From the IMG/VR virus record IMGVR_UViG_3300037423_000584: a DNA stretch of 64,000 nucleotides, one strand, 5' to 3'. Each line of letters opens with the position of its first letter. Position 1 is the first letter of the stretch. Positions 11,721-53,870 of the stretch are shown here, piece after piece. Below the pieces are notes generated by a model, which saw only the letters and a program-made list of their open reading frames with translations, was not told the origin of the DNA and did not search any database. Source of the DNA: a virus. The position numbers were made by a program, and so were the translations under genes.

Positions 11721-12209
11721 TTAAGCAAAAACAGTATAGATGATCTTAATTTGATCGCCAGAAGTTACAGTGATAGAAGAATCGAATGTAGCTGTTGACC
11801 AAAGAGTTCCACTGGTTCCTGATTTTGCAGAATCGCTATTTACAAAAATACCAGTGATACTTCCTGTGGTATTTATATTGAATGTAGCAGGAGTGGTATT
11901 TTTCGTAGATTGACTTATAGCATTATCAGAAACCCACTGACGTCTTGTAGTGTCACTATAACCTGTAAATTCTATCCATCCAGAGTGAGACGATATGGTA
12001 TCATTAGAAGCAAGAGCAGAATAACTTGATGTATCTATAAGTCCAATATACCAAGCAGTTATCTGTGTACCTGAATTAAACATTACATCAAGAATCTTGT
12101 TCTTTCCTGCGTTTGTGATACCATTATTAAAATCGATAGTATTTATAACTTCATTATTTCTAATGTGTTGTAACTGAAATTTTCCTTTTAATCCGATTGA
12201 TTCTTTCAT
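11721..12209 (-). CDS. Minor tail / fibre-anchoring virion protein
   Basis: NGITNAGKNKILD...WYIGL...GTLWS...VTSGDQIKIIYTV pattern common in phage tail proteins. Confidence 0.55.
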   Translation of the reverse strand: MKESIGLKGKFQLQHIRNNEVINTIDFNNGITNAGKNKILDVMFNSGTQITAWYIGLIDTSSYSALASNDTISSHSGWIEFTGYSDTTRRQWVSDNAISQSTKNTTPATFNINTTGSITGIFVNSDSAKSGTSGTLWSTATFDSSITVTSGDQIKIIYTVFA

Positions 12210-12222
12210 AAATTAATCTCCA

Positions 12223-15200
12223 TTATTTATTATTTTGTCTAAGTTCCCTAGATACTAATACAAGTTTTTCCTTTAATGATCTTTCTTCTGGTGTTGAACC
12301 AAGTTGTTTTGATAAGGAATCTATTACAGCAGATACAGTTGCTTTTACAGCTATATCTCTTGAACTATTTTCAAATCCTGTAACATTTAAGTCACCAGAT
12401 ACTTCTACCTTAGAATGAGATCCAGATTTATTCTGTATAGCATTTATAAATCTCTTTAGATCGGAAGACAGTTCTTCCATTGCACTAAATTTTGCAGCAA
12501 AGTCTAAAGGAGATGATCCTTTGTACTTATCAATGTCCTTTGTTAGACTTTCTCTGCTAAATTGGATCAAGTTGTCATCTGCTGATCCTCTTCCCTTGAT
12601 TTCAACAGGTGTTGAACTCGAAATTGCATTTGCTGGCGTAGCAGCAGGCTGAGCAACAGGAGAAGATGGAGGAGGAGCAAATGGATTAGTATATGCTGGC
12701 AATTGGAACTTAGTTCTAATTGCATCATTAATAGATTTTAATACATCTAACTGTTGTGTTTCTATAGATGCAGTTTCATTATAAGCAGAAAGCTGTTCCT
12801 TAACTTTGTCAAGAAGATCGCCAGAAGTATCTTGTCCAAGAGGACCGTTTCCTAATCCCTTCAAGAAAGATACGATTCCAGTGGCTTCTGATACTGTAGT
12901 TCTTCCTGCTGCACCGGGCAGTTTAACGCCACCAAATACGCTATTTGCCGTTTGTGCATCTTGTAAGAATGCATCTGGTAGAATAGATAGTCTATTTACA
13001 ACACCTTTGAATTGATCTTTAGATATCTTGCCAGAAACAACATCTTTTAGAATCTGTTGTGGATTTCTCTCGCCAGCTAATAATCCTCCACTGCTGAAAA
13101 GATCGCCAACTGTCGAATTAATTCTGCCAAGACTTACATCTGCTTGTGCTCTTTGTCCAACTGCTGTAGAACCAATTCTTTGATTAGCCTCTATTGAACT
13201 TGAAATACTCTTAGTGAGTTCTTCAAATTTAGCATTTAGAGCTTGCATTCTTAAGTTAGCTCTATCGACGCTATCTTTGTAGTCATCTTGAGCCTTCTTA
13301 AGATTAAGCATTCCGTCTGCTGCTTGCTTAGAAGAAGGAATAAATCCATCTCCACCAGTTAGACCAGCAGGATTAGCTAAAACCGTTTGACCAAATAGAT
13401 TGTTCCCAGATGATCCAAGGGTATTAGATGTACCTCTAATGATATCGTTTAAGCTAGCAACGATATCTTCTGAACTTGCACCAATAGAAGCAGACTGTCT
13501 TGCTCTATTGATTTTTGTATTAACAAAGGCTGTCTCGTATTGAACATCTCTGTCTTTTACGATGCGTTCTCTTTGATATCCTAAGAAGCTCTTCTTGATT
13601 TCTTCATTTAGTTGAGAAATAGCAGCCTTAAATCTATTAAGTTGTTCTGTTGGAAGATTCTTAATAAATTGAGCAATAAACGCAGAAGGATCGTTCTTAA
13701 ATCCTTGAACGTTTTGCTGTGCTGCTTTTGTAACACTATTAATGATTTCTGTTAATTGATTTTGACCTTCTTGTGTTCTAATATTTCCAGAAATACCAGA
13801 ATTCTTAAAGATATCGCTTATACCTTTAGATAATAAAGAACCAACATTGGTCTGATCTTGTTCTTGAACAACTCGACCAGCCAATTTTTGTAGTGAATCT
13901 ACAGATACATTTTCTAATCCTTTTTGAATTACTGCAATATCTCCGAATACATCTTTTTCGTTTCTAGAAAGAAATCCTCCTGCACTTTCGTTAATTCCAG
14001 AATCTATTGACTGTCTAGTATTTGGAGATGAAAGATTTAATTTTCCAAGTTTATTCTGGAAATTATTAAATGAAAAATCAGCAAATTGATCAGGAACTAA
14101 GAATAGACCGTTTCCTTGACCACTTAATGAAGTAGCAAATTGTTCTGATAATTGATTATCAATTCCTTTGCCTAATGCATTATTAGATATTTCTCTTGTT
14201 CGCTTATTAAAATTATAAGCAAATACTTCTACGCTGGCATTAGTTTGCAAGAATGCTTTTCTTGTCTCATCTATTACTTTAGCAATCTCAATAAAACTAT
14301 CTTTAACTGGATCTAAAACAACAGAGATAAACTCTTGTGCATTTTTGTCTGATCCACCTAGTTCCTTTTTGATTTTATCTTGTACTTGATCTGTAGAAAA
14401 ACCTTGAGCACCAAGCTGTCTAGCTCTATCAAATGCAAAATCTTTAATTTTTGCTGCGGCTGCTTGGCCTTCTGGTGTAGAAAGATCTTTTGCAAATTTA
14501 TCTCTTAATGCTTTTCTTGCATCTTCTTGCATTTCCTTTTGTGCTGCATCTGCAAATTTAGGATCAAAAGTACCTTGTCCTGCTCCAAGACCAGCAGCGG
14601 CACCATAAGAAAGTGTTCCAGAGCCAACTTTAGAAACTCTATCTTTTACTATATCCGATAACAACTGTCTTTGTTGACTTTGATTTTTACTAACAGAATA
14701 TCCAAGTAATAATTGTCCAACTCTGTCTGAATTTGCTTGACTATTTCCATTAATTAATCCACCTACTCCTCCGATAACTCCACCAGCAATTCCTCCAGCT
14801 AAAGTTCCAACTCCTGGAATTATAGATCCAGCAACTCCACCAGTTAATGCACCAGATGAAAATCCGGTCAATAATGAAGAAATAAGAGTATTTTTCTTAT
14901 TATTGCTAAGTATATTATTATAATTAGACTTTAATCCTTGACCATCTGATATTGATTGAACATTAGAAGCAAAAGAATTGCCAAGAATATCAATACCAGA
15001 AAGTGCAGCGGTTCCTAATAAGGATAATCCTATTGTTTTAGCAGTTGGATTACTGATTAGATTTCTGCCCTTTGTGGCTATATTTTCAATTCCACTAGAT
15101 AGTCTACCTCTTAAGCTATTGGCATTTGCTTGTTGTATTTGTTTTTGTTTAATAGAAAGTTCTTGTGCATCTAGTGCAGTGATTTCTCTTACGAAGAATT

Positions 15201-18200
15201 CTTTTTGCTTATTAAGCTTATCTATAGTGTCATTTGTTCTATCGATAGCTTTCTTTAGCTTCTTTTCAGCAAGGGAAACCTCTGCTTGTGTTGCATTTCT
15301 GTTTTCCAGCAACGCATTATAACGCTTTTGTGCAGCTTCTTGTGCTGCTATTGCCCTCTCTCTTCTTTTTGCTCCAACTGCTTCTGCTTTAGCATTTGCA
15401 GCTTGTAGTTCTTCTTTGGAAGCACTTCCTACAAGTTGATTCAAAGTAAGATCTTTGTTCTGTAAATTAACAGGATTCTCTGATTTAGCTTGTAGTACGG
15501 CTGCGGCACGAAGTTCTTGATCTGTAGAAAGCTTTGTAAGAAGCTTAGGAATTGGAATATTAGTTTTTTCATGATGAGATAATACCTTTTCTATTGTTTC
15601 ATCAGAAGCAACTTGTTGTAGATATTTCTCTTCAATTCTGTTATTTCCGGAACCAGCTTTTACACGATTAAAAATAAGATCAGCATCGCTTGCAACTTTT
15701 GAAGCAACTGTGCTATCTTTTGCACGCTGAATGAGATCTGGATTTTTTCTTAATGTTTGTTCAAATATTTTTTGATCAAAAACAGAAGAATTAATACCAG
15801 GAACTGGTCCTCCAAATAATTGAGTTATTGGATTACCGGGATGGAATTTGCCATTGCCGAAAAATTCAATAGGAGATCTGCCCAATTCCGGAGAAGTAGT
15901 AAATGGGAATTCTTGTCTGTGTTCTTTAGTATATCCGGGTCCGTATTTTCTAGTTAATACTAATTTACCATTTTCTAAGAATATAGAAGGTTGTGCTTCT
16001 TTGTTTAATGAAGCATGCATTCCTGCTTCTGTAGCAACAGAAGGATCTACGAACACTGTTTGAGAAGATAATGGTTTAAGACCAACATCCTTTGGATCAT
16101 GGCCCGGATGCAATGTCTTATTTCGTTGAGTTTTTCCATCTGCAAAAGTATAAGTAGAACCTTTTGCCGTTTGGAATCCAGTTACACTTCCTATTGGTGA
16201 CTTTATTACTCTTCCTAGTATATCATCATTTATTGTACTAAACTGAGTAGATTTTTGATATATTGCATTTTTCTTAATTTCATCTTCTAGTAATTGTTCA
16301 TTAATTACAGATTGTAATCCTCTTTCAAGATACTGTCTTTGATATATTCTATCTCTAGAATCCTTATCAATCAAAGAAACATTGGTATCTATTTTTTTGC
16401 CTCTTAGACTTTTTATTAATGGTGTTCCAGTATATGTAAGTGCCCCAGAACTAACAGTAGATTGTACTAGATCTTCTGTTAAGGATTTTCTTTTTATTCC
16501 AAGTGGAATTACTGGACCATCAGAGGTGGTATCGCTTGGACCACCGGGTTTTCCGAATACATTCTTAAGATTGCTTGCACCTCTTAGGAAATCTGGTATG
16601 CTGCCAAGAATACTTATTCCAAGTTTGATAGAAGCAAGTCTGACGAGCGTAGGAACAAGTGGAGCAATAGCATTTAAAGCATCGGCAGAATATTTTGCTA
16701 GTTCTGCAAATTCATGAACAAGTTGCTGAATACCTTGATTTTCTGAGAAGTGCTTAAATACTTCTTCGAATTTAGCACCAACAGAACTTATCTCAGCATC
16801 AATTCTCTTGATACCAATAACAGCATCTCTGCTTAGATCACCAGCAGATTGATTGATATCGCCAAGTGCCTTTGCGAATTCGCTTCCACCTTCTGCACCT
16901 TTTGCGATGTCTTTAAAGAATGGAGCAAGAACTCTGCCTTGTCCAATACCAGCAATCTTATTTACAACTTGATTTATACCTTCGTCATCAAGACCTTTTT
17001 CTTTTATAGCTTTACCGATTTCAAGGAATCTTTGAGCAATACCCTTTAAGCTTCCATCGGCGTTTCTAATTTTACCATTAGTAAATTGTTGCTCGAAATC
17101 AATAACTGCCTGATCATATGCTTTTAATGATGCGATACTGAATGCAGTACCAACAGTAGCAATTGGTGATTGAGATACTTTCTTTGCAGAAGCTATTGCA
17201 GCAACATATTCGTCAATTTGTCCTTTAGCAGACGCGAATGCACCACCACCGTTCTTGATAGCAGTAAAGATATCTCCAACGTCCAGAGAATACTTTTTGC
17301 TTACTTTACTGATTTTATCAAGAACAGATTCAGTTTCTTCGCCACTAAGATTAAATTGGTTAATTGCAGCAACGACACCTTCGGTAGTATCTCTTACTTC
17401 TCCGAATACGGCAGAAACTTTTGTTTTAGCAATTGCGTTTACTGCTCTTACAAGAGTTCCTTCGCTGCCAAACTTCTCGCCAGATTGGCTAAAGATTCTA
17501 GCTACGTTGATTAGTTCTTTGCCGCTTTGACCATAGGTCTGAGCAACCTTAAGTACCTTTTCGGATACTTCCGATGCTTTGTCAGCATTGCCATCAAAAA
17601 GCTGAGTTAATTTATTAATTTCAGCGTTTAGAGCAATAGCAGAGTCTTTGGCAGCAATAAGTGCGGCGGATAGCTTAAAAACTATTCCTGCTGGGATTAG
17701 ATAGGCAGTAAGTCTTGTGGTTGTACGACCAACTTGTTCAGCAAAGCTTGCTTGATCTTCTGTTGCTCTACGAGTAGATTTACTAAGTTCGTCAGTGCCT
17801 TTTACTGTTTGCTGTAATGCCTTTTGAGCATTATTTAATTGCTGCTGAAGACCGTTAGCACCTTGTCCAACTGCACCAGCATTTTGACCAGTAGTAAAGT
17901 TAACCTTTACGCTTACTGGATTTCTTTCAAAGTAACTATTAACCTTGGTACGGAAGATAGACGCCTGAGAAGGATCAAACTCAATCTTAATTGGTCTAGC
18001 AGTATTTAAGAGTTTATTAACTCTATCTATACTTTCTTTATTAAATTCAAGATTGAATTTTCCAAGGTTATTTTGGATTTGGTTTTTGACAGACGAAATG
18101 CTCTTTGATGAAATAGACATGTCCAAGTCTGATAACTTGGACTGTATTGCTTTTCTCATTCCTTCTAAACTTGAAGGATCTATGCCAGCACTTACTATAA

Positions 18201-18210
18201 TATCTGCCAT
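12223..18210 (-). CDS. Tail tape measure protein
   Basis: 1995 aa, helical and A/Q/K/S-rich; TP901-like core (VAQTYGQSGKELINVARIFSQSG...LDKISKVSKKYSLDVGDI); Gly-rich hydrophobic segment; follows chaperone genes. Confidence 0.9.
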   Translation of the reverse strand: MADIIVSAGIDPSSLEGMRKAIQSKLSDLDMSISSKSISSVKNQIQNNLGKFNLEFNKESIDRVNKLLNTARPIKIEFDPSQASIFRTKVNSYFERNPVSVKVNFTTGQNAGAVGQGANGLQQQLNNAQKALQQTVKGTDELSKSTRRATEDQASFAEQVGRTTTRLTAYLIPAGIVFKLSAALIAAKDSAIALNAEINKLTQLFDGNADKASEVSEKVLKVAQTYGQSGKELINVARIFSQSGEKFGSEGTLVRAVNAIAKTKVSAVFGEVRDTTEGVVAAINQFNLSGEETESVLDKISKVSKKYSLDVGDIFTAIKNGGGAFASAKGQIDEYVAAIASAKKVSQSPIATVGTAFSIASLKAYDQAVIDFEQQFTNGKIRNADGSLKGIAQRFLEIGKAIKEKGLDDEGINQVVNKIAGIGQGRVLAPFFKDIAKGAEGGSEFAKALGDINQSAGDLSRDAVIGIKRIDAEISSVGAKFEEVFKHFSENQGIQQLVHEFAELAKYSADALNAIAPLVPTLVRLASIKLGISILGSIPDFLRGASNLKNVFGKPGGPSDTTSDGPVIPLGIKRKSLTEDLVQSTVSSGALTYTGTPLIKSLRGKKIDTNVSLIDKDSRDRIYQRQYLERGLQSVINEQLLEDEIKKNAIYQKSTQFSTINDDILGRVIKSPIGSVTGFQTAKGSTYTFADGKTQRNKTLHPGHDPKDVGLKPLSSQTVFVDPSVATEAGMHASLNKEAQPSIFLENGKLVLTRKYGPGYTKEHRQEFPFTTSPELGRSPIEFFGNGKFHPGNPITQLFGGPVPGINSSVFDQKIFEQTLRKNPDLIQRAKDSTVASKVASDADLIFNRVKAGSGNNRIEEKYLQQVASDETIEKVLSHHEKTNIPIPKLLTKLSTDQELRAAAVLQAKSENPVNLQNKDLTLNQLVGSASKEELQAANAKAEAVGAKRRERAIAAQEAAQKRYNALLENRNATQAEVSLAEKKLKKAIDRTNDTIDKLNKQKEFFVREITALDAQELSIKQKQIQQANANSLRGRLSSGIENIATKGRNLISNPTAKTIGLSLLGTAALSGIDILGNSFASNVQSISDGQGLKSNYNNILSNNKKNTLISSLLTGFSSGALTGGVAGSIIPGVGTLAGGIAGGVIGGVGGLINGNSQANSDRVGQLLLGYSVSKNQSQQRQLLSDIVKDRVSKVGSGTLSYGAAAGLGAGQGTFDPKFADAAQKEMQEDARKALRDKFAKDLSTPEGQAAAAKIKDFAFDRARQLGAQGFSTDQVQDKIKKELGGSDKNAQEFISVVLDPVKDSFIEIAKVIDETRKAFLQTNASVEVFAYNFNKRTREISNNALGKGIDNQLSEQFATSLSGQGNGLFLVPDQFADFSFNNFQNKLGKLNLSSPNTRQSIDSGINESAGGFLSRNEKDVFGDIAVIQKGLENVSVDSLQKLAGRVVQEQDQTNVGSLLSKGISDIFKNSGISGNIRTQEGQNQLTEIINSVTKAAQQNVQGFKNDPSAFIAQFIKNLPTEQLNRFKAAISQLNEEIKKSFLGYQRERIVKDRDVQYETAFVNTKINRARQSASIGASSEDIVASLNDIIRGTSNTLGSSGNNLFGQTVLANPAGLTGGDGFIPSSKQAADGMLNLKKAQDDYKDSVDRANLRMQALNAKFEELTKSISSSIEANQRIGSTAVGQRAQADVSLGRINSTVGDLFSSGGLLAGERNPQQILKDVVSGKISKDQFKGVVNRLSILPDAFLQDAQTANSVFGGVKLPGAAGRTTVSEATGIVSFLKGLGNGPLGQDTSGDLLDKVKEQLSAYNETASIETQQLDVLKSINDAIRTKFQLPAYTNPFAPPPSSPVAQPAATPANAISSSTPVEIKGRGSADDNLIQFSRESLTKDIDKYKGSSPLDFAAKFSAMEELSSDLKRFINAIQNKSGSHSKVEVSGDLNVTGFENSSRDIAVKATVSAVIDSLSKQLGSTPEERSLKEKLVLVSRELRQNNK

Positions 18211-18234
18211 GTCTATCTTCCGTTATAAAGGTTA

Positions 18235-19032
18235 TTACTTCGGTTCTTCAACTACAACAGGAGTACCATCTTCGTCTAAAAATGGCTGTTCCTCTGAAAT
18301 CTCGCCTTGAAGAGTATTGATTTGCTTTGCAACCTCTTCCTCTAGCATCTTGACAGTCTTACCTTCTCTGTCAACCTTTTCACCAGTCTTGCGATCAATA
18401 TAGTTTAGATCATCATCAATGAAGTTATACTTCTTAAGCCAGCGATTTTCTGGTAGACGCTTTTCGAATTCTGTATTGACTCCATAGATTACTTCGGCAG
18501 AAGCAACACCGGCCTTGCGATAAACATCGCTTAGTTTATCAGCCTTCATGTCATCGAACGATTCCCAATAGTTTACTCCTGTTTCAGAATATACAGTACA
18601 AGCATAAACTATATAATCATTACGTTCACGTTCTGCTAAAGATTCGATAGTGGAATCATCGAAAATCTGACGCTTGCTCATTATCTTAACCATTTCTTTA
18701 CGCTTATCAGTTACTTCAATAGCAAGCTTACGACCTTCACTAAGTTTAATTCCGCCCTTCTTCATTTTGCCCAGAAGAACTTCGATATCCTCTTGAATCT
18801 GAGAGAGTTCTTGTTCTTCCTTTTCTGTCCAGACTCCTGTTTCCTTTAGAAACTTGTCTAGCTCAGAACGAAGAAGAAGACCCTTCTTGCCTCCGCTTTC
18901 TCTAATAAGGGATGCTACTTTTGAAGCATAAATCTTATCGGATTGCTCAAGATCGTCATAGGTTGGGCGACGAACCGATAGTGTAATTTCCTTGCCATCC
19001 TTATCGAAACTAGTAAAATCCTTGCGATTCAT
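18235..19032 (-). CDS. Putative tail assembly chaperone
   Basis: 265 aa, charged; immediately upstream of the tape measure gene. Confidence 0.45.
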   Translation of the reverse strand: MNRKDFTSFDKDGKEITLSVRRPTYDDLEQSDKIYASKVASLIRESGGKKGLLLRSELDKFLKETGVWTEKEEQELSQIQEDIEVLLGKMKKGGIKLSEGRKLAIEVTDKRKEMVKIMSKRQIFDDSTIESLAERERNDYIVYACTVYSETGVNYWESFDDMKADKLSDVYRKAGVASAEVIYGVNTEFEKRLPENRWLKKYNFIDDDLNYIDRKTGEKVDREGKTVKMLEEEVAKQINTLQGEISEEQPFLDEDGTPVVVEEPK

Positions 19033-19034
19033 TA

Positions 19035-19355
19035 TTATTCTCCTTTGTAATTCCTCTTGACTAAAATTGTCTGATGTCTATTCCAAACTACTTCGTGAAG
19101 GTCCAATTCGCTCATGCAATTACGTTTTTGTTGATTTCCAGTATTTAGGATATTATTGCGACATTCTTTCCATTTAGATCGGAAATCTTTTTGTTGGTCT
19201 GTTAATTCTGATTCTGGTCTGTTATATCCCCACAATTCTCCGAAAGCCATTTCAAACTGACTAAGCGGATAAATCATAGTGGTATCAAATTTCTTGCTTA
19301 CAATCTTCTTAAGTCTATCTCTAAACTTATCCTTCGTCTCTTGACTGTATTCCAT
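19035..19355 (-). CDS. Hypothetical protein
   Basis: 106 aa ORF coupled in the tail operon. Confidence 0.6.
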   Translation of the reverse strand: MEYSQETKDKFRDRLKKIVSKKFDTTMIYPLSQFEMAFGELWGYNRPESELTDQQKDFRSKWKECRNNILNTGNQQKRNCMSELDLHEVVWNRHQTILVKRNYKGE

Positions 19356-19356
19356 T

Positions 19357-20409
19357 TTATCTCCTATTTTGTGTTCCTTGCGATGCCGCCTGATTTACTT
19401 TCATAATCAGATCTTGCTTCACATCAGGCAACTGTGTATGTTCCAATTGTCCTTTTTCGTTGATTACTTTTTCTCTAGTCGCTATAATTCCTTTGGCAAT
19501 AGGATCGTTAAGGCTATAAACTTCTTTTGCCCCTTCCTTGTCACTTGGAATAAAGACTTCTTGACCAGATATTAAGTTTGCTGAATTTTCTACTTGTCTC
19601 TTCTGATTTTCTTTATTTATTCTATCTGCTTCTGCTTTATACCAAGCATCGAATTTCGTATCGTCGTTTATTACTTCGTCACTTGGTCTATTTGAACTTT
19701 CAAAAGCAAAATCGTAGACCTTGGTCCACAACAAAAGCAAATATTGTAAATCCGTCATCTCAACAGAAGAGTGAGGGAAAAGGTGGGTTCCTGTACCTTT
19801 CGATACTGTCCAATATAACCGCCAAGGGTCGGTTCTTGCTATCTCTCTTATTTCTGGCTCAGAAATACCGTTTTCCTTATAATAATAATATACAAGAACA
19901 TCTAAAAATGCTGGCTCTTCTAATAGAGATCTATCTTTAATTTCTGTTATTTTTGATACTATAAACTTCTTTCTGCCCATATCGGATAAGTATTCAGCAG
20001 TAGAAGAATATAATTGATTCCTGATGGTTTCTAATTCTATGAAACGCTTCTTTGCTTTTTCTATGGCTGCTTTTGCTGTTCTTTCCTCTGATTTCTTGAA
20101 TCTAAGCTCTGGCAATCTAGAGTTGAGTTTCTCGATATCTGATTTAATAGTTTCTAGTTCTTTTTGAAGCTTATCATTCCATAAACCTTTTTCAGTCAAC
20201 AGTTTATATGATTCTTCAAGAGTAAATAATCCATCTTCTTTTGTAGATCTATTAAAGATTTTGTTGTAAATCCAGTCGCTTTCGGCAAGGATGGACAACG
20301 AAGGATCTTTGAAAACAACATCAAAGTTGTCATGCTTGTACTTGACTGTGCAGTACAATGTTCTACTGGTTATTCTGCGGAGGATTTGTTCTCTTTTATT
20401 GAAGTCCAT
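19357..20409 (-). CDS. Putative tail assembly chaperone-like protein
   Basis: 350 aa coiled-coil; C-terminal PSDEVINDDTKFDAWY motif; lies between tube and tape measure genes. Confidence 0.4.
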   Translation of the reverse strand: MDFNKREQILRRITSRTLYCTVKYKHDNFDVVFKDPSLSILAESDWIYNKIFNRSTKEDGLFTLEESYKLLTEKGLWNDKLQKELETIKSDIEKLNSRLPELRFKKSEERTAKAAIEKAKKRFIELETIRNQLYSSTAEYLSDMGRKKFIVSKITEIKDRSLLEEPAFLDVLVYYYYKENGISEPEIREIARTDPWRLYWTVSKGTGTHLFPHSSVEMTDLQYLLLLWTKVYDFAFESSNRPSDEVINDDTKFDAWYKAEADRINKENQKRQVENSANLISGQEVFIPSDKEGAKEVYSLNDPIAKGIIATREKVINEKGQLEHTQLPDVKQDLIMKVNQAASQGTQNRR

Positions 20410-27208: not shown

Positions 27209-29998
27209 TTATATTATATATGGAACTTTAGTTGATCCAGAGGTGGGGCCGTTAGCTAATACCGGAGCACCATCTCCGTAATAATCAAGAGTTCCGGCAT
27301 CAGTACCACTCCTTCCGCCAGTCACGCTTACATCATCCACGTAGACGATTTGGTCCACCGAACTACTCGTCCCCGTCGCCCACACGTTGACGGCGAAGTA
27401 GAGGACGGCGTTGTCGGTAGGAGTGACGGTGACGGACAACTGCTCCCATGTTCCCGTCGCGGCCGAGGCGGTCGCCGTGGACGTCGCGACAGGACCGGCG
27501 AATTGATTTCCCGGACAGACTAGCGAGGCCCCGGCAAGAGACGTCTCCCTCCGTACCCAGACAGACACTGTGATCGGGACACCAGAGACGGCCGCTACGC
27601 GGGCAATACGGAACGGGTATGGATAGGCCGATCCTCGCTGGAACAGATTGGAGGTCGTTGACCAGTACAGTGTCACTTTGCGGGACTTGCCCCCGGCTGT
27701 GTGGACGATGGTGGATTCTTCCTGAATGCTCCCGCCGTCGAAAATGCTGACGTTCCCTTGGGACACCCCGTTGATCTTGAAATTCTGAAAGTGGATGGTC
27801 GGGTTGGTGGCCATTGACGCGTTAGGGGTGATCGATTTTAGGGGGTCAACGGCTCCAAAGTAGTTGGCCGTTACTACGTTGGTGTTGATCCAGTAGCATT
27901 CGTTTGACCCGCTAACGGACGTGTTGACCCCGGCCGTAGAGAAGTAGTTTAGCTGGTTGCTACTAAAGTTTTGCCATATATCGTATAGCGTGGTTCCGAT
28001 GATACGGCCTCTCCCAGCTCCGAGCAGTATCGGGCCGTTCCCGTTGCAGTTTCGCACGACACCGAGATACAGGTTTCCCTCTCCACTGAATCCCTGAAAT
28101 ACCGCACTTGCTCCCTGCCCACCATTGGAGATGTAATTCTTTATGGTCAGTGAGGAGTCGCGGTCGAACGATGCACCCATCGACACGCCACCGCTACTGA
28201 AAGCATTGATGAAGGTGAACGTGACGTCACTTCCCTGCGACCCGGTCCCGGACCATGATAGAGTACCCGAGCCAACAGCGGATTCGATGTTGATTGTCTG
28301 CGTGCTCGCCTGCGACATAGTAAGCGTCGTACTGAATCGGACGGCTGACAGGCCGGTGACGACCATGCTGGTGTTTGAGAGGTCGCATGCCAGAAGCGTA
28401 AAGCCACTATGGCCGGAATGGTCAATGTAGGTCTGGGCGGGTGTTTGCTGGGTACTCATGTCCGTCCGGTTCCACCCGCCGCTAATCTGGATACCCGAAC
28501 CTTTAGGGGCCGGCGACGGACCTCGGCCGGGCATTCGGATTAGAATACTACCCGAGGTCCCGAGCCCCAAGGCGTAGCTTCGAATGCATTCCCGCCGGTA
28601 TAAGGTGGCACCGGTCGCCGTAACTCCCGTATAGCCTCTCGTCGCGGACTGGTTGTTGGCGGACGAATGAGCGAAGTTCGAATCTTGGTCGATCAGAAGG
28701 CACTTACCGCCAGAACCGTTATCCCAGAAGCTGGCGACGGGCCACCACGCCTCGGAATCATCCCCGCCCGCACCGATCGAGTTGGCCTTACCGATTAAGC
28801 TAGCGTGAGTGATCGCCTTGGCGTTCGACGGGGCGACGACGGCGACTATGTTACAGACCTGCAACCCGATGGAAACAAATGAACCGGAGTCCCTATAGAT
28901 CGCAACGGAATTGATCCCGCTCGGGAGGGCTGATCCGTTATCAAAGACGACTGGATAGATAGCATTAACGCTTCCCGCCGGCAGTGGAATCGTGGTCACT
29001 GGGACGTCCCCCGTCGTATCAGAGCAAAGGCGAAGGGAGAAGTTGGCAGGGGTATTGCTGGACGCAGTTTTGAATTGCAAAGATATCTGCTGGTACGCCG
29101 ACAGGTCCAATGTGGACGGGAGGGTACGGTAGGCCAGCTTCCCCGCTGCCGTCCCTGAACATACCACGGAGAATTGTCCAGCCGGGTCCTTCATGGTTCC
29201 CGCCGAGCCGATTGTGTTCGGAGAGACAGCCGTCCACGCAGCCGAGATGCCGGTGCCCACTGCACGGTCAATCACCTTGAATCCGGTCGTACCCGTAAGC
29301 TCAACAACCTTGTTCCTGTATTGTCCGACCGTCACGTTGTTGTAGGTGGTGCCGGGAGCCGTGGACCCGTCCAGCGTGAACGTAGTAGTTCCCGTTACGG
29401 TGATTCTCCACAGGTTGTTTATTGGCGTGGAGACGCTGACGGCAGTTACGAATACCCAATCGCCGGTCTGGAAACCATGAGCAGTGGTGGTCGTAATCGA
29501 AACAGGTGTAGTATTGGTCGTTACATTGCTCGTCTTGGTGGATTCGTAGAACCGGCCGCTATCTGAGTCCTGCCAGTTCGACGTGATTCCGGTGCTGACC
29601 GGGGCAGGAGAGGCCATGACTCGGATGGTATCATTGGGCATCACGGAACTGAGGGTATTGAACGCGACGCTGTTGTTCGGAGTCTTCCATCGGCCACCGA
29701 TGTTGAACGTGTAGGTGCCGTTGGTAAGGGTCGTGCTGGTGTAGATGGTCGAACCGTTGGCGACATAAGTGAATGGCGAGAGCGTCAGGGTCGTGCTGTT
29801 CGGGACAGCCGTAATCAGGAACGCCCCTCTTGTCGTGAGCATGATCGACCGACCGATCAGTGCCGTGGTAAATCCTGTCGTCTGAGAGGATGCAACGAAA
29901 GAGGAGCTGGTGAGCGTGCCGCTTCCGGTATTTTCTAAGGCGAACGAGTCGCCACCCCACAGGTCGTTGCCGTTTTCGAGGTCGAAATACCAAATCAT
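27209..29998 (-). CDS. Large GC-rich virion fibre/adhesin (FCCH-like beta module, beta-helix, CBM-like C-terminus)
   Basis: TPVSITTTTAHGFQTGDWVFVTAV...ITVTGTTTFTLDG; C-terminal ITVSVWVRR...TWEQLSVTVTP...VYVDDVSV jelly-roll pattern. Confidence 0.6.
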   Translation of the reverse strand: MIWYFDLENGNDLWGGDSFALENTGSGTLTSSSFVASSQTTGFTTALIGRSIMLTTRGAFLITAVPNSTTLTLSPFTYVANGSTIYTSTTLTNGTYTFNIGGRWKTPNNSVAFNTLSSVMPNDTIRVMASPAPVSTGITSNWQDSDSGRFYESTKTSNVTTNTTPVSITTTTAHGFQTGDWVFVTAVSVSTPINNLWRITVTGTTTFTLDGSTAPGTTYNNVTVGQYRNKVVELTGTTGFKVIDRAVGTGISAAWTAVSPNTIGSAGTMKDPAGQFSVVCSGTAAGKLAYRTLPSTLDLSAYQQISLQFKTASSNTPANFSLRLCSDTTGDVPVTTIPLPAGSVNAIYPVVFDNGSALPSGINSVAIYRDSGSFVSIGLQVCNIVAVVAPSNAKAITHASLIGKANSIGAGGDDSEAWWPVASFWDNGSGGKCLLIDQDSNFAHSSANNQSATRGYTGVTATGATLYRRECIRSYALGLGTSGSILIRMPGRGPSPAPKGSGIQISGGWNRTDMSTQQTPAQTYIDHSGHSGFTLLACDLSNTSMVVTGLSAVRFSTTLTMSQASTQTINIESAVGSGTLSWSGTGSQGSDVTFTFINAFSSGGVSMGASFDRDSSLTIKNYISNGGQGASAVFQGFSGEGNLYLGVVRNCNGNGPILLGAGRGRIIGTTLYDIWQNFSSNQLNYFSTAGVNTSVSGSNECYWINTNVVTANYFGAVDPLKSITPNASMATNPTIHFQNFKINGVSQGNVSIFDGGSIQEESTIVHTAGGKSRKVTLYWSTTSNLFQRGSAYPYPFRIARVAAVSGVPITVSVWVRRETSLAGASLVCPGNQFAGPVATSTATASAATGTWEQLSVTVTPTDNAVLYFAVNVWATGTSSSVDQIVYVDDVSVTGGRSGTDAGTLDYYGDGAPVLANGPTSGSTKVPYII

Positions 29999-49029: not shown

Positions 49030-49371
49030 AGATATTTTCCTTTCTCTATTAATTATCGTGTTTGTGTCTTTCTATGTTCTGAAAATATCGAGTTTGAATA
49101 CATGGGTCCGAATGATGGGCAACTTTCATACAGCAACGGTTGCCAGAAATAAAATCAGAGGGTGATAAAGAAAATAAGCATTGTTGTTTCTTTATAAAAA
49201 TGGGGGGTTAGAAGAATAAAAGAATATGAACGAAGGATGGGCATCTTCTTTTGGAAGATGCTGAGTGCTAGGGTTAGGGCCGCCCGCGGGGGGCCGCCGC
49301 AAATATCGACTAGTGTATATTTATAAAAACCTGGGGGCGTTAGGGCTTTGTGCGGTACGACAACCGCCTGC

Positions 49372-49386
49372 TGGCACGGCTTTTGC
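49372..49386 (+). promoter_or_regulatory. sigma54-type -24/-12 site
   Basis: TGGCACGGCTTTTGC (GG-N10-GC). Confidence 0.6.
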
Positions 49387-49448
49387 CTACGACATCCTGG
49401 CCGGAAATTTGTCAAATGTCGTACACTACTACGACAATGCGGCCGGTA

Positions 49449-49463
49449 GCAAAGACTGTGCCG
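49449..49463 (-). promoter_or_regulatory. sigma54-type -24/-12 site
   Basis: CGGCACAGTCTTTGC on the minus strand. Confidence 0.55.
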
Positions 49464-49553
49464 GACACCTGCCTAACAACCCCTGAAACTGTAACCCTTG
49501 GCGTGACAACGAGTTACGAAAAAAATGGACCGTTGAGGAATTTGGAACGGCAT

Positions 49554-49568
49554 CGGCACGGCCGTTGC
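49554..49568 (+). promoter_or_regulatory. sigma54-type -24/-12 site
   Basis: CGGCACGGCCGTTGC. Confidence 0.55.
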
Positions 49569-49637
49569 TCTATGTCTCCCGTCCCCACAAGGGACCGACC
49601 CCCGCAACGGGGGGCGTGACAAGTGACAACTAGGCTC

Positions 49638-49666
49638 TTGACTTGCACGCGGGGAGTCTCTACAAT
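49638..49666 (+). promoter_or_regulatory. sigma70 early promoter
   Basis: TTGACT-17 nt-TACAAT at the head of the plus-strand block. Confidence 0.8.
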
Positions 49667-49672
49667 CTCCCC

Positions 49673-50090
49673 GTTAGCCAGTACCGAAACCGAAGCGTCT
49701 GCCATTAGGTAGGTGTCAGGGAGTAGGGAAAGCGGATTATGGAAACTCAGTGTGAGTTTCCCCGCTAAGGGTCTAGACTGGTGACGAACGAAAGGATTGC
49801 CCGACACCTAGTAACAAAAACCTAACGGCCGGTATTAGGAATCTGAGATGGGGACAACCCCTGTTGACTGGTTCTAAGGTACGGGTTGGAGTGAAAATCT
49901 CCCGTTGGCTAACCCAACGCAAGTGAATAGTCGATACCTTAGCTAGATAGGCTTGCCCTATTTGCGTCCCGCAAGGGGTGTGGATTCGGACCCGATGCTA
50001 GCGAACGTAATCGGCCACGGGTTTTTGCGATGGCCCGGAAAATCGCACTAGGTACGTCGTGACGACGTGTATGGGTTTACCCCAGCCTAC
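49673..50090 (+). ncRNA. Structured leader / ncRNA downstream of the early promoter
   Basis: Stems TAGGTGTCAGGG/CCCGACACCTA, GGAAACTCA/TGAGTTTCC, CTAAGGTA/TACCTTAG, CCC-GCAA-GGG, ACGTCG-TGA-CGACGT; no credible ORF. Confidence 0.5.
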
Positions 50091-50165
50091 GGTACATAGA
50101 TGGATGGACCGCTGTACTCTGATATAGGGTAGCTGGGTTTAACGCTCCCATTAAGGTAGGTAGTG

Positions 50166-50285
50166 TTGCTTAACCAGTCTTATCATATATCGGAATATTG
50201 GCAGATGATGCCCGGCCTAGGCTATAAGCCTCAGAGAAAGCCGTTAAACTTGGGATTCGCGTTCCCCTCAGTCCCGCTTGTGTGA
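50166..50285 (+). CDS. Small ORF in stem-enclosed cassette A (about 39 aa)
   Basis: AAGGTAGG at 50153, then GTG/TTG start; MLNQSYHISEYWQMMPGLGYKPQRKPLNLGFAFPSVPLV. Confidence 0.4.
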   Translation: MLNQSYHISEYWQMMPGLGYKPQRKPLNLGFAFPSVPLV

Positions 50286-50545
50286 AGCGATACACTGATA
50301 AAACGCTATAGCGTCCGAAAAGATTCGCTTGTGTGACTAATGCCTTACCAGCGTTCACAAGGAATTGAAGTAGGACCACGATTGGAGTCAGCAACTAATC
50401 CGGAAGCTATTTGGATGGCCACTGGATAGCAGGATGTAAATTAAAGAGCGATTGAACGCTTCTATTCAGAGTATAGCCGTCCGTCCATCTGTGGTAAGTA
50501 AACTAGGTGAGTGGTCCGGCCTACCCTCAGAAAAGGTAGGTAGGT

Positions 50546-50812
50546 ATGCAACGGAACACTACGGTTCAAGAGGAACAGGAACGGCGAGAAGTGCAACGCT
50601 TTGGGAAAGCTTGCCACGAAGCGTTAGACGCTTGCCTTCGTAATGTCGAAAGTGCAAGGGTGACGTTTACTGGTCAAGGCGTGGAAGTGGGTGCAATCTC
50701 TCTCCGCATCGTTAAGACGTATGATGGCGAAAACCGGCCGGTTAGGTTGGTATCGGCATCTGCTACGCTCAAATTGCGTCTAAATGCATCGGCAGCTATC
50801 GAAAACAAGTAG
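50546..50812 (+). CDS. Early hypothetical protein (cassette B)
   Basis: AAGGTAGGTAGGT leader; enclosed by helix 50503-50528/50831-50856. Confidence 0.75.
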   Translation: MQRNTTVQEEQERREVQRFGKACHEALDACLRNVESARVTFTGQGVEVGAISLRIVKTYDGENRPVRLVSASATLKLRLNASAAIENK

Positions 50813-51138: not shown

Positions 51139-51251
51139 CGAACCCATAAGGGTTCTATGGGGGATTCTCAATATCTGAAAACATATCTACGGTATCGGTC
51201 AAGGTTTCACTTTTGAGCAATCCGAAAGGATTGCGGAAGGATGGTATTACC

Positions 51252-51719
51252 ATGACTCAGATCGATACTCCCGTCGAATCCTCTGCCGATGCCACTGAAG
51301 GCCAGCGGCAGGGTGCCGCTCCGGCCGCCCCGAACGCGGATGCGGAGCATTCGACCCGCGTCAAGAAGGTGATGGCCGACGTTCTCAAGCCCGGTTTCGG
51401 GAATGAGAACAAGGATGCCGCATTCACCCGCAAGATCGTGCAGTTGACGTTCCAGCGGGAACTCGGGAACGTGGACATCGCCGACAAGTCGGCCGATTCT
51501 GTGTACGCCGAAGCGTGCAAGCGGATCGCCGACAACGCCGAAGTCGAAGGCCAAGCGTTGAAGGAGCGATATATCGCGTCCGTCACCGCCGTCGCCTTGG
51601 GTGCTACGCGGGCCGTTACCCTTAAGGGTAACGTCACCGCGATGGAAGCGAGCAAGGCATACGTCAATTTCAAGCCGTCGGCCAAGCTCAACAACCAGAC
51701 GTTCTTCAACGCTCTGTAA
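51252..51719 (+). CDS. Early Ala-rich protein with GC-rich codons (cassette D)
   Basis: AAGGATGGT leader, ATG at 51252; enclosed by helix 51181-51198/51751-51768. Confidence 0.8.
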   Translation: MTQIDTPVESSADATEGQRQGAAPAAPNADAEHSTRVKKVMADVLKPGFGNENKDAAFTRKIVQLTFQRELGNVDIADKSADSVYAEACKRIADNAEVEGQALKERYIASVTAVALGATRAVTLKGNVTAMEASKAYVNFKPSAKLNNQTFFNAL

Positions 51720-51782
51720 CAAGATCCAACACTCTAACTGTCTCTAGTTTCCGGTATCGTAGATATGTAGTAGCTTAGATAG

Positions 51783-51824
51783 AACAAGAGGCGACCGGGC
51801 ACCGTGCCCGGCCGCTCTTGTTTG
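51783..51824 (+). terminator. GC-rich hairpin / terminator ending the cassette array
   Basis: AACAAGAG-GCG-A-CCGGGCAC...GTGCCCGG-C-CGC-TCTTGTT. Confidence 0.6.
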
Positions 51825-52187
51825 GGAGATAACTACGACATTATGTCGTACCTAACAAATGTTAGGAACGACGGGGAGTCGTACGACATTCTGACACCGA
51901 ACAGGTGTTAGGGTGTCTTTGTGTCGCACCTAACGCTTGGCTAACCAGGCAAGGTGTCGTACCGAACAAAAGCCAGCCGAACAAAAACCTAACAGCAGAC
52001 TCGGATGCCGACAGGCGGAGAGTCTGCGAGCGGCTGCGGCGAAGTACGGGCAACGTGCTTATGATTACTGTATCGGCAATATAGCTCTCTATGCGTCATT
52101 CTGACGCGGTACTACCAAGTAAGATTGTCACACTGTAAATTCAGGCGATGACAATAAGCTATGGTTAGTACATATATCTTATCCGTA

Positions 52188-53260
52188 ATATAGTTCGCCC
52201 CAACCTTGTGATAGGTTGTCGATGATGCGAACAAATGCGGAGTCAACAGTAGCCAAGTACGGAATTGGCTAGGGTTGTCTTGGTATACTTGTAGGTGTCC
52301 AATGATCCTGAAAGGGTGAATTGGGCGTCGAAACTATATCAGGCTTCTACAGTGACTCTGGTGCCTTGGGTTAGCTCTATCGCGTCCCCTATGCTGTTGG
52401 TCAATAGACTGGCGTATAGGTTCGGTGTGGTATCTAATCTGAGAGCATCCCCTCTTTAGACGTAGAGGGTCAAAGACCGAAGGCAAGGCAAAGCACTACG
52501 TGGACACGTAGATGGTTAGGGATTGATACCTAATGGGTTTCCCTATCCTACCTACCTAATACCACAGTGACTAAGCGGTGCATACCGCATATCCAAACAG
52601 GATAGCAACTGTTAGGGATATGGACTGGAACACTGACGAAGGGGTACATATCTACCATTGAAGGCCAGACGGTTATCGAAGCCGAATGTAGATTCCCCGC
52701 TGATACGAAAGAAACTCTATCGAAGGTGCAAAGGCGAAGTCATCTTAGATGACGAAGTAGCCGATGAGGTCGATAGTGACGAGTAGTTGAATGTGAAATG
52801 AATGGCCTAATTAACATAACCCGAACCCAGGATATCCAAGTAAGAACGGTTGGACAGCTATCACATCGAAAGTCAAGCGATGATGCTGCATCACTTCCTA
52901 GTATGAAAACGGATAGCGTCTTTCCTATAATGACGTAAATGGCTGGGATAACTAAACTTATAGACGATTGTAGGTTGTCGTATAACCTACAGTTTGTAGT
53001 GTAACCATTTCAAAACTTGTCTCATGTAATAGTCCCAAACACAATGCAGTCAGAGCAAAGCTCATTCTGAATCCATTGATTATGCGTGGGTTTCGCTATG
53101 GAGTCCTTTGGACTCAGATTGCAACTCTGTCGTCAAACGACATGGACTAACACAGATTAGGTTTCGAAAGAAACTGATACCTCTCGGTATCGTTTTGGAT
53201 GGAAGCACGAACAACACATGCGGGGATCGGTTCGTGAATAACTGACCGATTCCCTTTTTT
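52188..53260 (+). ncRNA. Large ornate non-coding RNA candidate (about 1.1 kb), family unassigned
   Basis: No ORF of 60 aa or more in six frames; about 20 contiguous hairpins, GAAA tetraloops and long-range stems; ends in a terminator; followed by a tRNA. 5' boundary approximate. Confidence 0.7.
53222..53260 (+). terminator. Terminator with TGAATAA loop
   Basis: GGGGATCGGTT..TGAATAA..GACCGATTCCC followed by a T-run. Confidence 0.8.
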
Positions 53261-53293
53261 CGTTTCCAAATCCAGGTTCTAACTAAAAAGGTA

Positions 53294-53366
53294 GGGCATA
53301 TAGCTCAACGGTTAGAGCAGAGCACTCATAATGCTTTGGTTCTAGGTTCGAATCCTAGTATGCCCA
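53294..53366 (+). tRNA. tRNA with CAT anticodon (Ile2 likely; elongator Met possible)
   Basis: Full cloverleaf GGGCATA...CT-CAT-AA...TTCGAAT...TATGCCC-A; no initiator features; CCA not encoded. Confidence 0.9.
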
Positions 53367-53394
53367 TTGGTCATCTAACAAAGGTAGGTTAGCT

Positions 53395-53481
53395 ATGGTC
53401 AAGTTTGATCGAACGTTCTTGTTCTTGGTTTCGTTCCTCATGCTTGCATGGGGATTGGCAGCGGTCGCGTCCAGGCATTAA
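53395..53481 (+). CDS. Small membrane peptide (28 aa)
   Basis: AAGGTAGGT leader; MVKFDRTFLFLVSFLMLAWGLAAVASRH. Confidence 0.6.
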   Translation: MVKFDRTFLFLVSFLMLAWGLAAVASRH

Positions 53482-53539
53482 TTGCGGCGGCTGCTCGGAA
53501 GGATGGTAAGGAAACCCATTTTTACTAAGGTAGGTAAAT

Positions 53540-53815
53540 ATGCGTCGTTCTCTTCGTTCACTCATGGATGGATCGGCCGTAGGTGGCGTTTGTCATTCGG
53601 TTGAAACTCCTAATCCGCGTAGGGTTGGATTTTATCCCAACGTGGAAGGATTTGAATGGATTCATGATAATTTCGTGAATACCGATCAAATCGTTGAACA
53701 GCAAATCAAGCTGGGATATCATCCGGCCGGTTATGGCGGTCCTTATGATATCAAGCAGGAGCAGAGGGGTGATAAGGTTATTATCACTTGGAAATGCTCT
53801 GATAATTGTGATTAA
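53540..53815 (+). CDS. Hypothetical phage protein
   Basis: AAGGTAGGT leader; QIKLGYHPAGYG...TWKCSDNCD. Confidence 0.75.
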   Translation: MRRSLRSLMDGSAVGGVCHSVETPNPRRVGFYPNVEGFEWIHDNFVNTDQIVEQQIKLGYHPAGYGGPYDIKQEQRGDKVIITWKCSDNCD

Positions 53816-53870
53816 AAATCACTCACAACCTCTGTATCGAAAGATACTTAGGTTGTTTCTACCTACCTTG

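Follow-up and report, generated by a model that had tools for sequence, protein, structure and literature searches.

To our knowledge, only a handful of bacterial and phage non-coding RNAs (ncRNAs) longer than 500 nt have been described, and none of them has an established function. ROOL, one of these, is ~580 nt long. In the GOLLD family, whose expression increases in the course of phage lysis, one studied member (env-38) lies downstream of a Met-tRNA (bioRxiv 10.1101/2024.12.08.627333). The large lytic phage K (Kayvirus) encodes two intergenic RNAs of 635 and 1154 nt, lnc001 and lnc002, which adjoin its tRNA genes; one is produced from an early promoter of its own, and both are abundant and of unknown function (PMC9241854). 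Here we analyze a stretch of phage DNA without long open reading frames (ORFs), for which an initial annotation, made from the letters alone, had proposed a new giant structured ncRNA of about 1.1 kb (52188-53260) upstream of a tRNA. The window, i.e., the whole stretch of DNA analyzed (64,000 nt, to which coordinates refer unless a relative is named), corresponds to bases 42356-106355 of the 172,542 bp IMG/VR phage record IMGVR_UViG_3300037423_000584, which is rated complete, and the same phage is present in at least 11 metagenome runs from soil and rhizosphere. The interpretation that we favor, and consider probable though far from certain, is that ~1.45 kb of this DNA (51.78-53.26 kb) specifies this phage's own large structured ncRNA, which belongs to no catalogued family, is maintained by selection, and has a sequence specific to its clade.

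In this phage, late and structural genes (including those for the portal and the large terminase) occupy the - strand up to ~49.0 kb, and from there a + strand early arm carries many small ORFs, each with the leader AAGGTAGGT on its 5' side. Within this arm, the gene-free stretch extends from the stop codon of a 155 aa gene (51719) to a tRNA-Met (53294), thus covering 51720-53293, and the interval 51723-53539 is the longest gap without an ORF of at least 70 aa in the whole 172.5 kb genome. Its GC content is 46%, compared to 34.7% for the genome, and GC climbs to 43-53% across ~49-54 kb. The flagged interval 52188..53260 (+) represents the central and 3' part, or the 3' two-thirds, of this ORF-free structured region, and the earlier statement that it holds no ORF of 60 aa or more was confirmed on both strands, where the longest ORFs are 54 and 50 aa. 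Gene callers left the stretch empty on seven identical, independent contigs, save for a 35 aa antisense ORF on two of them. Stop-codon reassignment or recoding was considered and rejected, because each of the three stop codons is common in every one of the six frames. The leader motif is absent from the + strand between 50895 and 53288, and searches of the stretch for peptides shared with the equivalent gaps of relatives, or for pseudogene remnants of any ORF of the genome or its relatives, gave chance-level matches only.

Folding was evaluated by z-scores against dinucleotide shuffles, and helices were graded by pair probability, those at 0.9 or above being regarded as robust. On the + (sense) strand, 51770-53262 folds far better than its shuffled controls (z = -8.4, against -6.2 antisense), and the flagged interval also folds better in sense (-5.1) than in antisense orientation (-2.9), while two coding controls gave -2.4 and +0.9. 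In 200 nt windows, very strong folding is seen at 51.77-52.2 kb and 53.0-53.3 kb. Nothing was found to support the left boundary initially placed at 52188; the strongest-folding part (51770-52180) lies 5' of it. A non-coding, structured region was upheld, but a single RNA of ~1.1 kb closed by long-range helices was not supported: robust helices are nearly all local, and the unit more likely spans ~51.78-53.26 kb.

The 5' limit of this non-coding unit is likely a GC-rich, terminator-like hairpin with a U-rich tail, TCTTGTTTGGG, detected by a terminator scan at 51782..51826 (+), in which helices 51784-51788/51817-51821 and 51795-51800/51806-51811 both have pair probabilities of at least 0.9. Just 3' of it, a 19 nt hairpin motif resembling TACGACATTCTGTCGCACC occurs twice in tandem (51834-51852 and 51882-51900, +); it might function as a promoter, in processing, or in protein binding. 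Both copies lie in a hairpin-dense 5' segment (51827..52187, +) that the initial coordinates had omitted, with + strand z-scores of -3 to -9.8 in 200 nt windows, twelve robust local helices, and short direct repeats (GTCGTACC[T/G]AACAAA and CCGAACAAAA; D1-D5, D9). Toward the other end, a nested 3' domain of ~190 nt (53011..53197, +; local z = -4.6 to -5.5) is the sole robust multi-helix domain of the region, with helices 53011-53016/53192-53197, 53030-53035/53144-53149, and 53046-53051/53117-53122, plus inner hairpins, at or above 0.9. The 3' limit is an early-class intrinsic terminator (53222..53262, +) consisting of an 11 bp stem (53222-53232/53244-53254, pair probability at least 0.9), a loop containing TGAATAA, and a T-run. 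The clean terminator noted initially (hairpin 53222-53254 plus T-run) thus proved robust.

The other structural proposals fared unevenly. Eight of the eleven local hairpins listed initially have mean pair probabilities of at least 0.9, while CTACGT/ACGTAG has only 0.03, and the three pairs proposed to close domains did not survive (0.01, 0.00, and 0.23). Except within 53011-53197, robust helices are local; as thermodynamic prediction is weak for long-range pairs, the lack of long-range helices is not decisive. CGAAG does recur as described (7 copies versus 1.5 expected), and GNRA-capped hairpins are not enriched (1 versus 1.2 expected). Two further candidates for long-range pairing were discarded. 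The 14 nt inverted repeats 51756/52645 and 52532/53507 are of a kind of which about two pairs are expected by chance in 5.3 kb (an estimate), and a duplex that would close the unit by pairing the terminator tail with a distal 3' segment was no better than shuffles in five of six lineages; in the window, an equivalent of the closing duplex that is predicted for the sister clade described below is at chance level.

A search of the whole window against Rfam 15 with cmscan returned only two tRNAs at gathering score. With permissive filters and E-values up to 10, no match to GOLLD, ROOL, OLE, or HEARO was found in 51500-53600, and only chance hits (E of 3 or more) besides the tRNA were found over 48.5-53.6 kb. 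The Rfam models of group I/II introns, RNase P RNA, tmRNA, 6S RNA, riboswitches, and self-cleaving ribozymes were likewise unmatched. As far as these models can see, GOLLD, ROOL, OLE, HEARO, introns, RNase P RNA, and tmRNA are excluded, in line with the initial annotation, which had recognized neither hallmarks of GOLLD and ROOL nor intron, RNase P, or tmRNA cores. Comparison of the stretch with 50,697 phage records by blastn (word size 11) gave no match, including to lnc001 and lnc002 of phage K, and the same records gave no tblastn match to a nearby 437 aa receiver-domain protein. A terminase-based search for related phages found none, and when IMG/VR, JGI metagenomes, and GTDB genomes were scanned for invariant words and for the tRNA-Met, no further relatives turned up (0 hits).

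The 437 aa protein has about 100 relatives (37-65% identity, on contigs of up to 358 kb), and all of those with a fully readable early arm keep a ~1.1-1.7 kb stretch that is ORF-free or ORF-poor, GC-enriched, and folds in sense orientation after the first small GC-rich early gene, even though the conserved proteins of the phages keeping it are only 48-63% identical. The order of small GC-rich gene, terminator-like hairpin, and 1.1-1.7 kb ORF-free or ORF-poor stretch is found in five relatives (L012, L013, L023, L024, and L026). In L025 the stretch is cut off by the contig end; L021 retains the GC-rich small gene and the terminator hairpin, but genes are called 0.5 kb downstream; and little could be learned about the early arm from L014, L022, and L027. 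In most lineages, a GC-rich hairpin whose tail resembles TCTTGTTT comes after the small gene, and the particular arrangement seen at 51782..51826 recurs in L024, L021, and L013. L012 (63% identity in the 437 aa protein) shows a gap, a GC-rich 166 aa gene within a long-range helix, a 1658 bp gene-free stretch, and a 92 aa gene. Its helices (7931-7957/8562-8588 and 7916-7930/8637-8651) differ entirely in sequence from the corresponding helix in the window, which supports a "gene-in-a-loop" architecture, and the C-terminus of the 155 aa protein in the window is matched by the 166 aa protein (41% over 37 aa, pairwise E = 8e-7). L013 (61% identity) has a gap, a GC-rich 204 aa gene, and a 1089 bp gene-free stretch. 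The gene-free stretches of both have a GC content of 45-49%, and they fold better in sense than in antisense orientation (z = -8.6 versus -2.2 in L012, and -6.3 versus -4.3 in L013).

Position is thus kept, but sequence is not. By nhmmer and blastn, also when restricted to the gaps, the gene-free stretches of the window, L012, and L013 have no detectable sequence in common, and those of L012 and L013 contain neither a shared peptide nor a remnant of any ORF. The only sequence-level correspondence is the 19 nt motif, to which the weak blastn hits correspond; L013 also has two copies at the equivalent place (8686-8704 and 8775-8793), and no good match was found elsewhere in the 172 kb genome or in other relatives. 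Neither L012 nor L013 matched Rfam at gathering score. In the loci fetched for L009-L013, ARAGORN detected no tRNA, so the tRNA neighborhood does not appear to be conserved: the stretch does lie upstream of a tRNA-Met (53294-53366), as first noted, but this link was not seen in those relatives. The proposal of a new class of large structured RNA likewise holds in part, in that the region is non-coding, structured, unmatched in Rfam, and kept in position, whereas a single class is not shown, because the clades share no detectable sequence.

Evidence of selection and covariation comes from a sister clade comprising L023, L024, and L025 (L026 is 99.9% identical to L023 in the stretch, leaving three distinct sequences). 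Their 437 aa proteins are 48-51% identical to that of the window and 81-89% identical among themselves, and in their early arms the first early gene is GC-rich, encodes 175 aa, and precedes a gene-poor stretch. We aligned ~1.05 kb of this stretch (L024:2470-3531, L023:1705-2781, and L025:1-897, all on the - strand; alignment A4), which ends in a terminator-like hairpin. A core of 520 nt (columns 71-590) is 94-96% identical in every pair, whereas in five neighboring genes L023 agrees with the other two at 41-65% of third and 89-96% of second codon positions, so the core is more conserved than the codons of neighboring proteins. There is no coding signal in it: variable sites of A4 are spread evenly over the three phases (47/47/45), indels are 1, 2, and 4 nt long, and the lone long antisense frame is broken by two stops in L025 and shows a flat substitution pattern. 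Pairing, on the other hand, is maintained. With a structure predicted from a single sequence, compensatory changes exceed expectation (7 versus 2.7, 13 versus 4.6, and 6 versus 2.2; ~2.7-fold, P 0.005-0.02) and broken pairs are depleted (42 versus 64, 70 versus 94, and 36 versus 58; P of 0.002 or less). In the RNAalifold structure, 13 pairs are changed on both sides, versus 4.9 +/- 1.8 in shuffles (reached in 0 of 500) and 0-3 in slid controls, and the consensus folds at -270 kcal/mol in sense versus -209 in antisense orientation, with G-U pairs in 15% of cells. The sister-clade stretch is a strongly constrained, strand-specific structured ncRNA.

In the sister clade, L024 matched nothing in Rfam at E-values up to 1, word scans with the core in the same kinds of collections found no further relatives, the A4 profile found nothing in the window, and the 155 aa and 175 aa protein families could not be joined significantly (hhalign E = 0.05). 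The sister clade is accordingly tied to the flagged stretch by position and architecture, homology not being demonstrated.

Contigs from two metatranscriptome runs of different studies fall inside the flagged interval. One (X12) spans 52548-53034, where it is ~96% identical and differs by 18 substitutions, of which 16 are listed, and one insertion; the other (X13) covers 52586-52734 and shares two of the substitutions. The listed substitutions of X12 all lie within 52687-52952. In this natural variant, the center of the stretch changes faster than the flanks, and an A inserted after 52808 breaks the only ATG-started ORF of the covered part (52798-52938, 46 aa). The contigs are at most a hint of an abundant RNA. 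The runs were found with this stretch and cannot rank it against other genes, and no conclusion can be drawn from those parts of 47-57 kb that have no RNA contigs.

We propose that 51.78-53.26 kb would be transcribed on the + strand together with the early genes, the RNA starting after the leaky-looking terminator hairpin 3' of the first GC-rich early gene and ending at the early-class intrinsic terminator just 5' of the tRNA-Met, and that the phage group keeps an RNA locus at this position while its sequence turns over between clades. The window's own evidence for this is composition, folding, position, and a hint of expression; the decisive evidence, of selection and covariation, comes from the sister clade, and equal constraint on its stretch, accumulation as a discrete RNA, and a function for it would each be extrapolations. 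Several observations weigh against the proposal. The window RNA has no alignable relative, and the seven other contigs with the upstream gene are all 100% identical. It has no sequence similarity to the sister-clade RNA, L012, or L021; homology is therefore not demonstrated, and the sister clade lends its support by analogy of position. The natural variant contains no compensatory change, and its preservation of structure is not significant (P ~0.2). In 200 nt windows, the center (52400-52900) folds no better than shuffles. The flanking early coding sequence is strongly structured too, which makes excess folding a trait of the early arm in general. The RNA contigs show no strand, ends, or level, and come from runs retrieved with the stretch itself. 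Finally, no promoter for the stretch was identified.

Our best guess for the function is a trans-acting early RNA that may serve in host takeover as a decoy, sponge, or scaffold, as has been proposed for GOLLD, ROOL, and the lncRNAs of phage K. This would fit the early timing, the size, the clade-specific sequence, and the lack of any conserved partner gene except a fast-evolving small protein, and both the earliest-transcribed position of the locus and its turnover between clades point in this direction; such turnover would be expected in an arms race. A bolder idea, which we advance only tentatively, is that this group of large soil phages reserves the slot just behind its first early gene for giant (1-1.6 kb) structured RNAs, swapped or remodeled between clades like anti-defense cassettes, so that unrelated RNA "genes" perform the same early job, as trans-acting decoys, sponges, or self-assembling scaffolds in host takeover. 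If so, these would be the largest phage-borne structured RNAs known, and the slot the first positional hot-spot for them.

Instead of acting in trans, the stretch might be a cis-acting structured spacer, i.e., the long untranslated 3' tail of the first early cistron and the leader of the tRNA in one polycistronic early transcript, providing a platform for processing and stability (RNase III/RNase E sites, or protection from exonucleases) in the way of the helices around each neighboring early ORF. The whole early arm is indeed built of structured cassettes with long-range helices and leader/anti-leader pairs. The gene upstream (51252..51719, +; 155 aa, GC 58%), the constant left neighbor of the stretch, is enclosed by a helix of 51181-51198 with 51751-51768 (+; inverted repeat I7, 18 nt, 89% complementary) that forms the last of four "gene-in-a-loop" cassettes (51181..51768), and the counterpart in L012 is conserved in architecture. 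The stretch itself contains an anti-leader word, ACCTACCTA, with CCT directly before it (52547..52558, +), which is the complement of the ribosome-binding leader of early genes and also occurs 3' of early-ORF stop codons at 53861 and 55078. A spacer would also agree with robust helices that are nearly all local hairpins, a terminator of the type used by coding cassettes, and the missing separate promoter. Yet known phage spacers, as in T7 early RNA, measure tens of nt rather than 1.1-1.7 kb; a terminator-like hairpin parts the stretch from the upstream gene in most lineages; relatives have no tRNA downstream; and the sister clade's 520 nt core, at 94-96% identity, is much more tightly constrained than a stability element would require. 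We thus regard a cis-acting spacer as unlikely.

The locus could also act as DNA, at a packaging site for example, or as a replication origin at which an early transcript through this GC-rich, G-skewed region forms a structured pre-primer or an R-loop, for which ColE1 RNA II and the R-loop origins of T4 are precedents. The cumulative GC skew reaches its minimum at ~48.5-49 kb, which is the strand switch, 2.7-4.2 kb from the stretch; this proximity would suit an origin, but the switch in gene orientation alone explains the minimum, and a second ORF-free, GC-rich stretch lies closer to it (49030-50546). Similarly, the lack of ORFs and the short direct repeats at the 5' end are origin-like, but neither iteron arrays nor an AT-rich unwinding element was found. 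A clade-specific sequence is what an origin co-evolving with its initiator would show, and high nucleotide conservation of the sister-clade core would be no surprise. Against this, the consensus structure is strand-specific with many G-U pairs and the compensatory changes indicate pairing in RNA, features that a pre-primer RNA would share. On balance an origin or other DNA site seems improbable.

Slightly harder still to credit is non-functional DNA, such as decayed early-gene cassettes or an unpurged foreign GC-rich insert. The anti-leader word is accompanied by leader-like fragments in the stretch, its center evolves faster than its flanks in the natural variant, its sequence is not conserved between clades, and other foreign-looking GC-rich DNA is present in this phage at 27-30 kb. 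Against this, no remnant of any ORF of the genome or its relatives was recognized, an ORF-free or ORF-poor 1.1-1.7 kb stretch is kept in place across such diverged phages, sense folding is far above shuffles in three lineages, and the sister-clade counterpart is under strong purifying selection. Unrecognized small protein genes, without the usual leader or unusually read, are barely credible: although the + strand of the stretch has several ORFs of 35-59 aa and early genes of only 40-90 aa are numerous in this phage, none of these ORFs has the AAGGTAGGT leader, the variant's insertion breaks the 46 aa ORF, no peptide is common to relatives, and the sister-clade stretch has a flat codon-phase distribution and frame-breaking indels. 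A large structured ncRNA of this phage therefore remains our preferred reading.

Besides the stretch itself, several features of its surroundings deserve mention. The 155 aa protein is an orphan, the sole member of its cluster, without a Pfam or PHROG match, and structure models of the neighboring small protein are too poor to support a fold search (pLDDT 46 and 58; Atlas model 0.43). The tRNA-Met (CAU; 53294..53366, +; Rfam 75.2 bits, also found by ARAGORN) is overlapped at its 5' end by a leader copy, AAGGTAGGG, at 53288-53296, as if the tRNA stood in the slot of a coding cassette. The second ORF-free stretch (49030-50546, ~1.5 kb, GC 46-58%), located at the strand switch 5' of the first leader-bearing cassette, is also left empty by gene callers on identical contigs, and could harbor a promoter region or an origin, or specify a leader RNA. 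One metatranscriptome contig, from a close relative, carries 109 unrelated nt in place of 121 nt of the first cassette (50316-50438), which is a cassette-level exchange between strains. Within the structural module, a 929 aa ORF (27209-29998, - strand) has a GC content of 51-58%, against 35% for the genome, and looks like a gene of foreign composition; its sole Pfam match is a weak one to E1_FCCH. Among the relatives, L021 encodes a 1116 aa ORF with intein and LAGLIDADG domains at the position of the large terminase (16268-19618), and an epimerase gene with a faint LAGLIDADG match (12129-14261). The contig of L027 (JBBAEC010000032.1; 45% identity in the 437 aa protein) was binned with a Balneolaceae metagenome-assembled genome, a weak hint at Balneolaceae as the host of this phage group.

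Large phage ncRNAs are a known kind, but the stretch in the window matches no catalogued family and would exceed GOLLD in size. A 1-1.5 kb locus kept by position across soil phages of 120-185 kb would add new and larger examples to this short list, and it suggests that a plain screen for ORF-free, GC-elevated DNA still yields uncatalogued RNAs in uncultured phages.

Compared with the systems described so far, the locus resembles GOLLD in being a large phage-borne candidate ncRNA of unknown function with a GC content above that of its genome. It differs in that no GOLLD model matches it even at E-values up to 10, in its size (~1.45 kb versus ~800 nt), and in its evolution, since the 3' region of GOLLD is universally conserved across distant taxa, whereas here the sequence is unrecognizable between sister clades. 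Nor is a long-range or pseudoknotted architecture supported in the window, whereas the large ornate RNAs (GOLLD, ROOL, OLE, and HEARO) are organized by long-range helices or pseudoknots. As for location, GOLLD RNAs of phages and prophages often adjoin tRNA genes; here the tRNA-Met is 32 nt downstream of the window unit, and the fetched loci of L009-L013 are without a tRNA. ROOL, too, belongs to phages or prophages and is located close to tRNA islands; it is very abundant and has no known function or protein partner, but it has conserved pseudoknots, its tRNA neighborhood has no conserved equivalent among the relatives here, and no Rfam match to it was obtained for the window (E up to 10), L012 and L013 (gathering score), or L024 (E up to 1).

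The RNase III helices of T7-type early RNA and rRNA operons are stable helices between and around units, as in the neighboring cassettes here. Such processing helices are tens of nt long and flank coding or rRNA units, while the 1.45 kb discussed here holds nothing to release, except perhaps the RNA itself. ColE1 RNA II is a highly structured, strand-specific RNA that lacks ORFs, measures several hundred nt, and has a replicon-specific sequence, and the stretch would be comparable in these respects. The ColE1 RNA belongs to a mapped origin, and its length is exceeded two- to threefold by the stretch. Judged by size, timing, and context, the closest analogue is provided by the lnc001 and lnc002 RNAs of phage K, which were defined by RNA-seq rather than by conservation, whereas here expression is no more than hinted at by metatranscriptome contigs.

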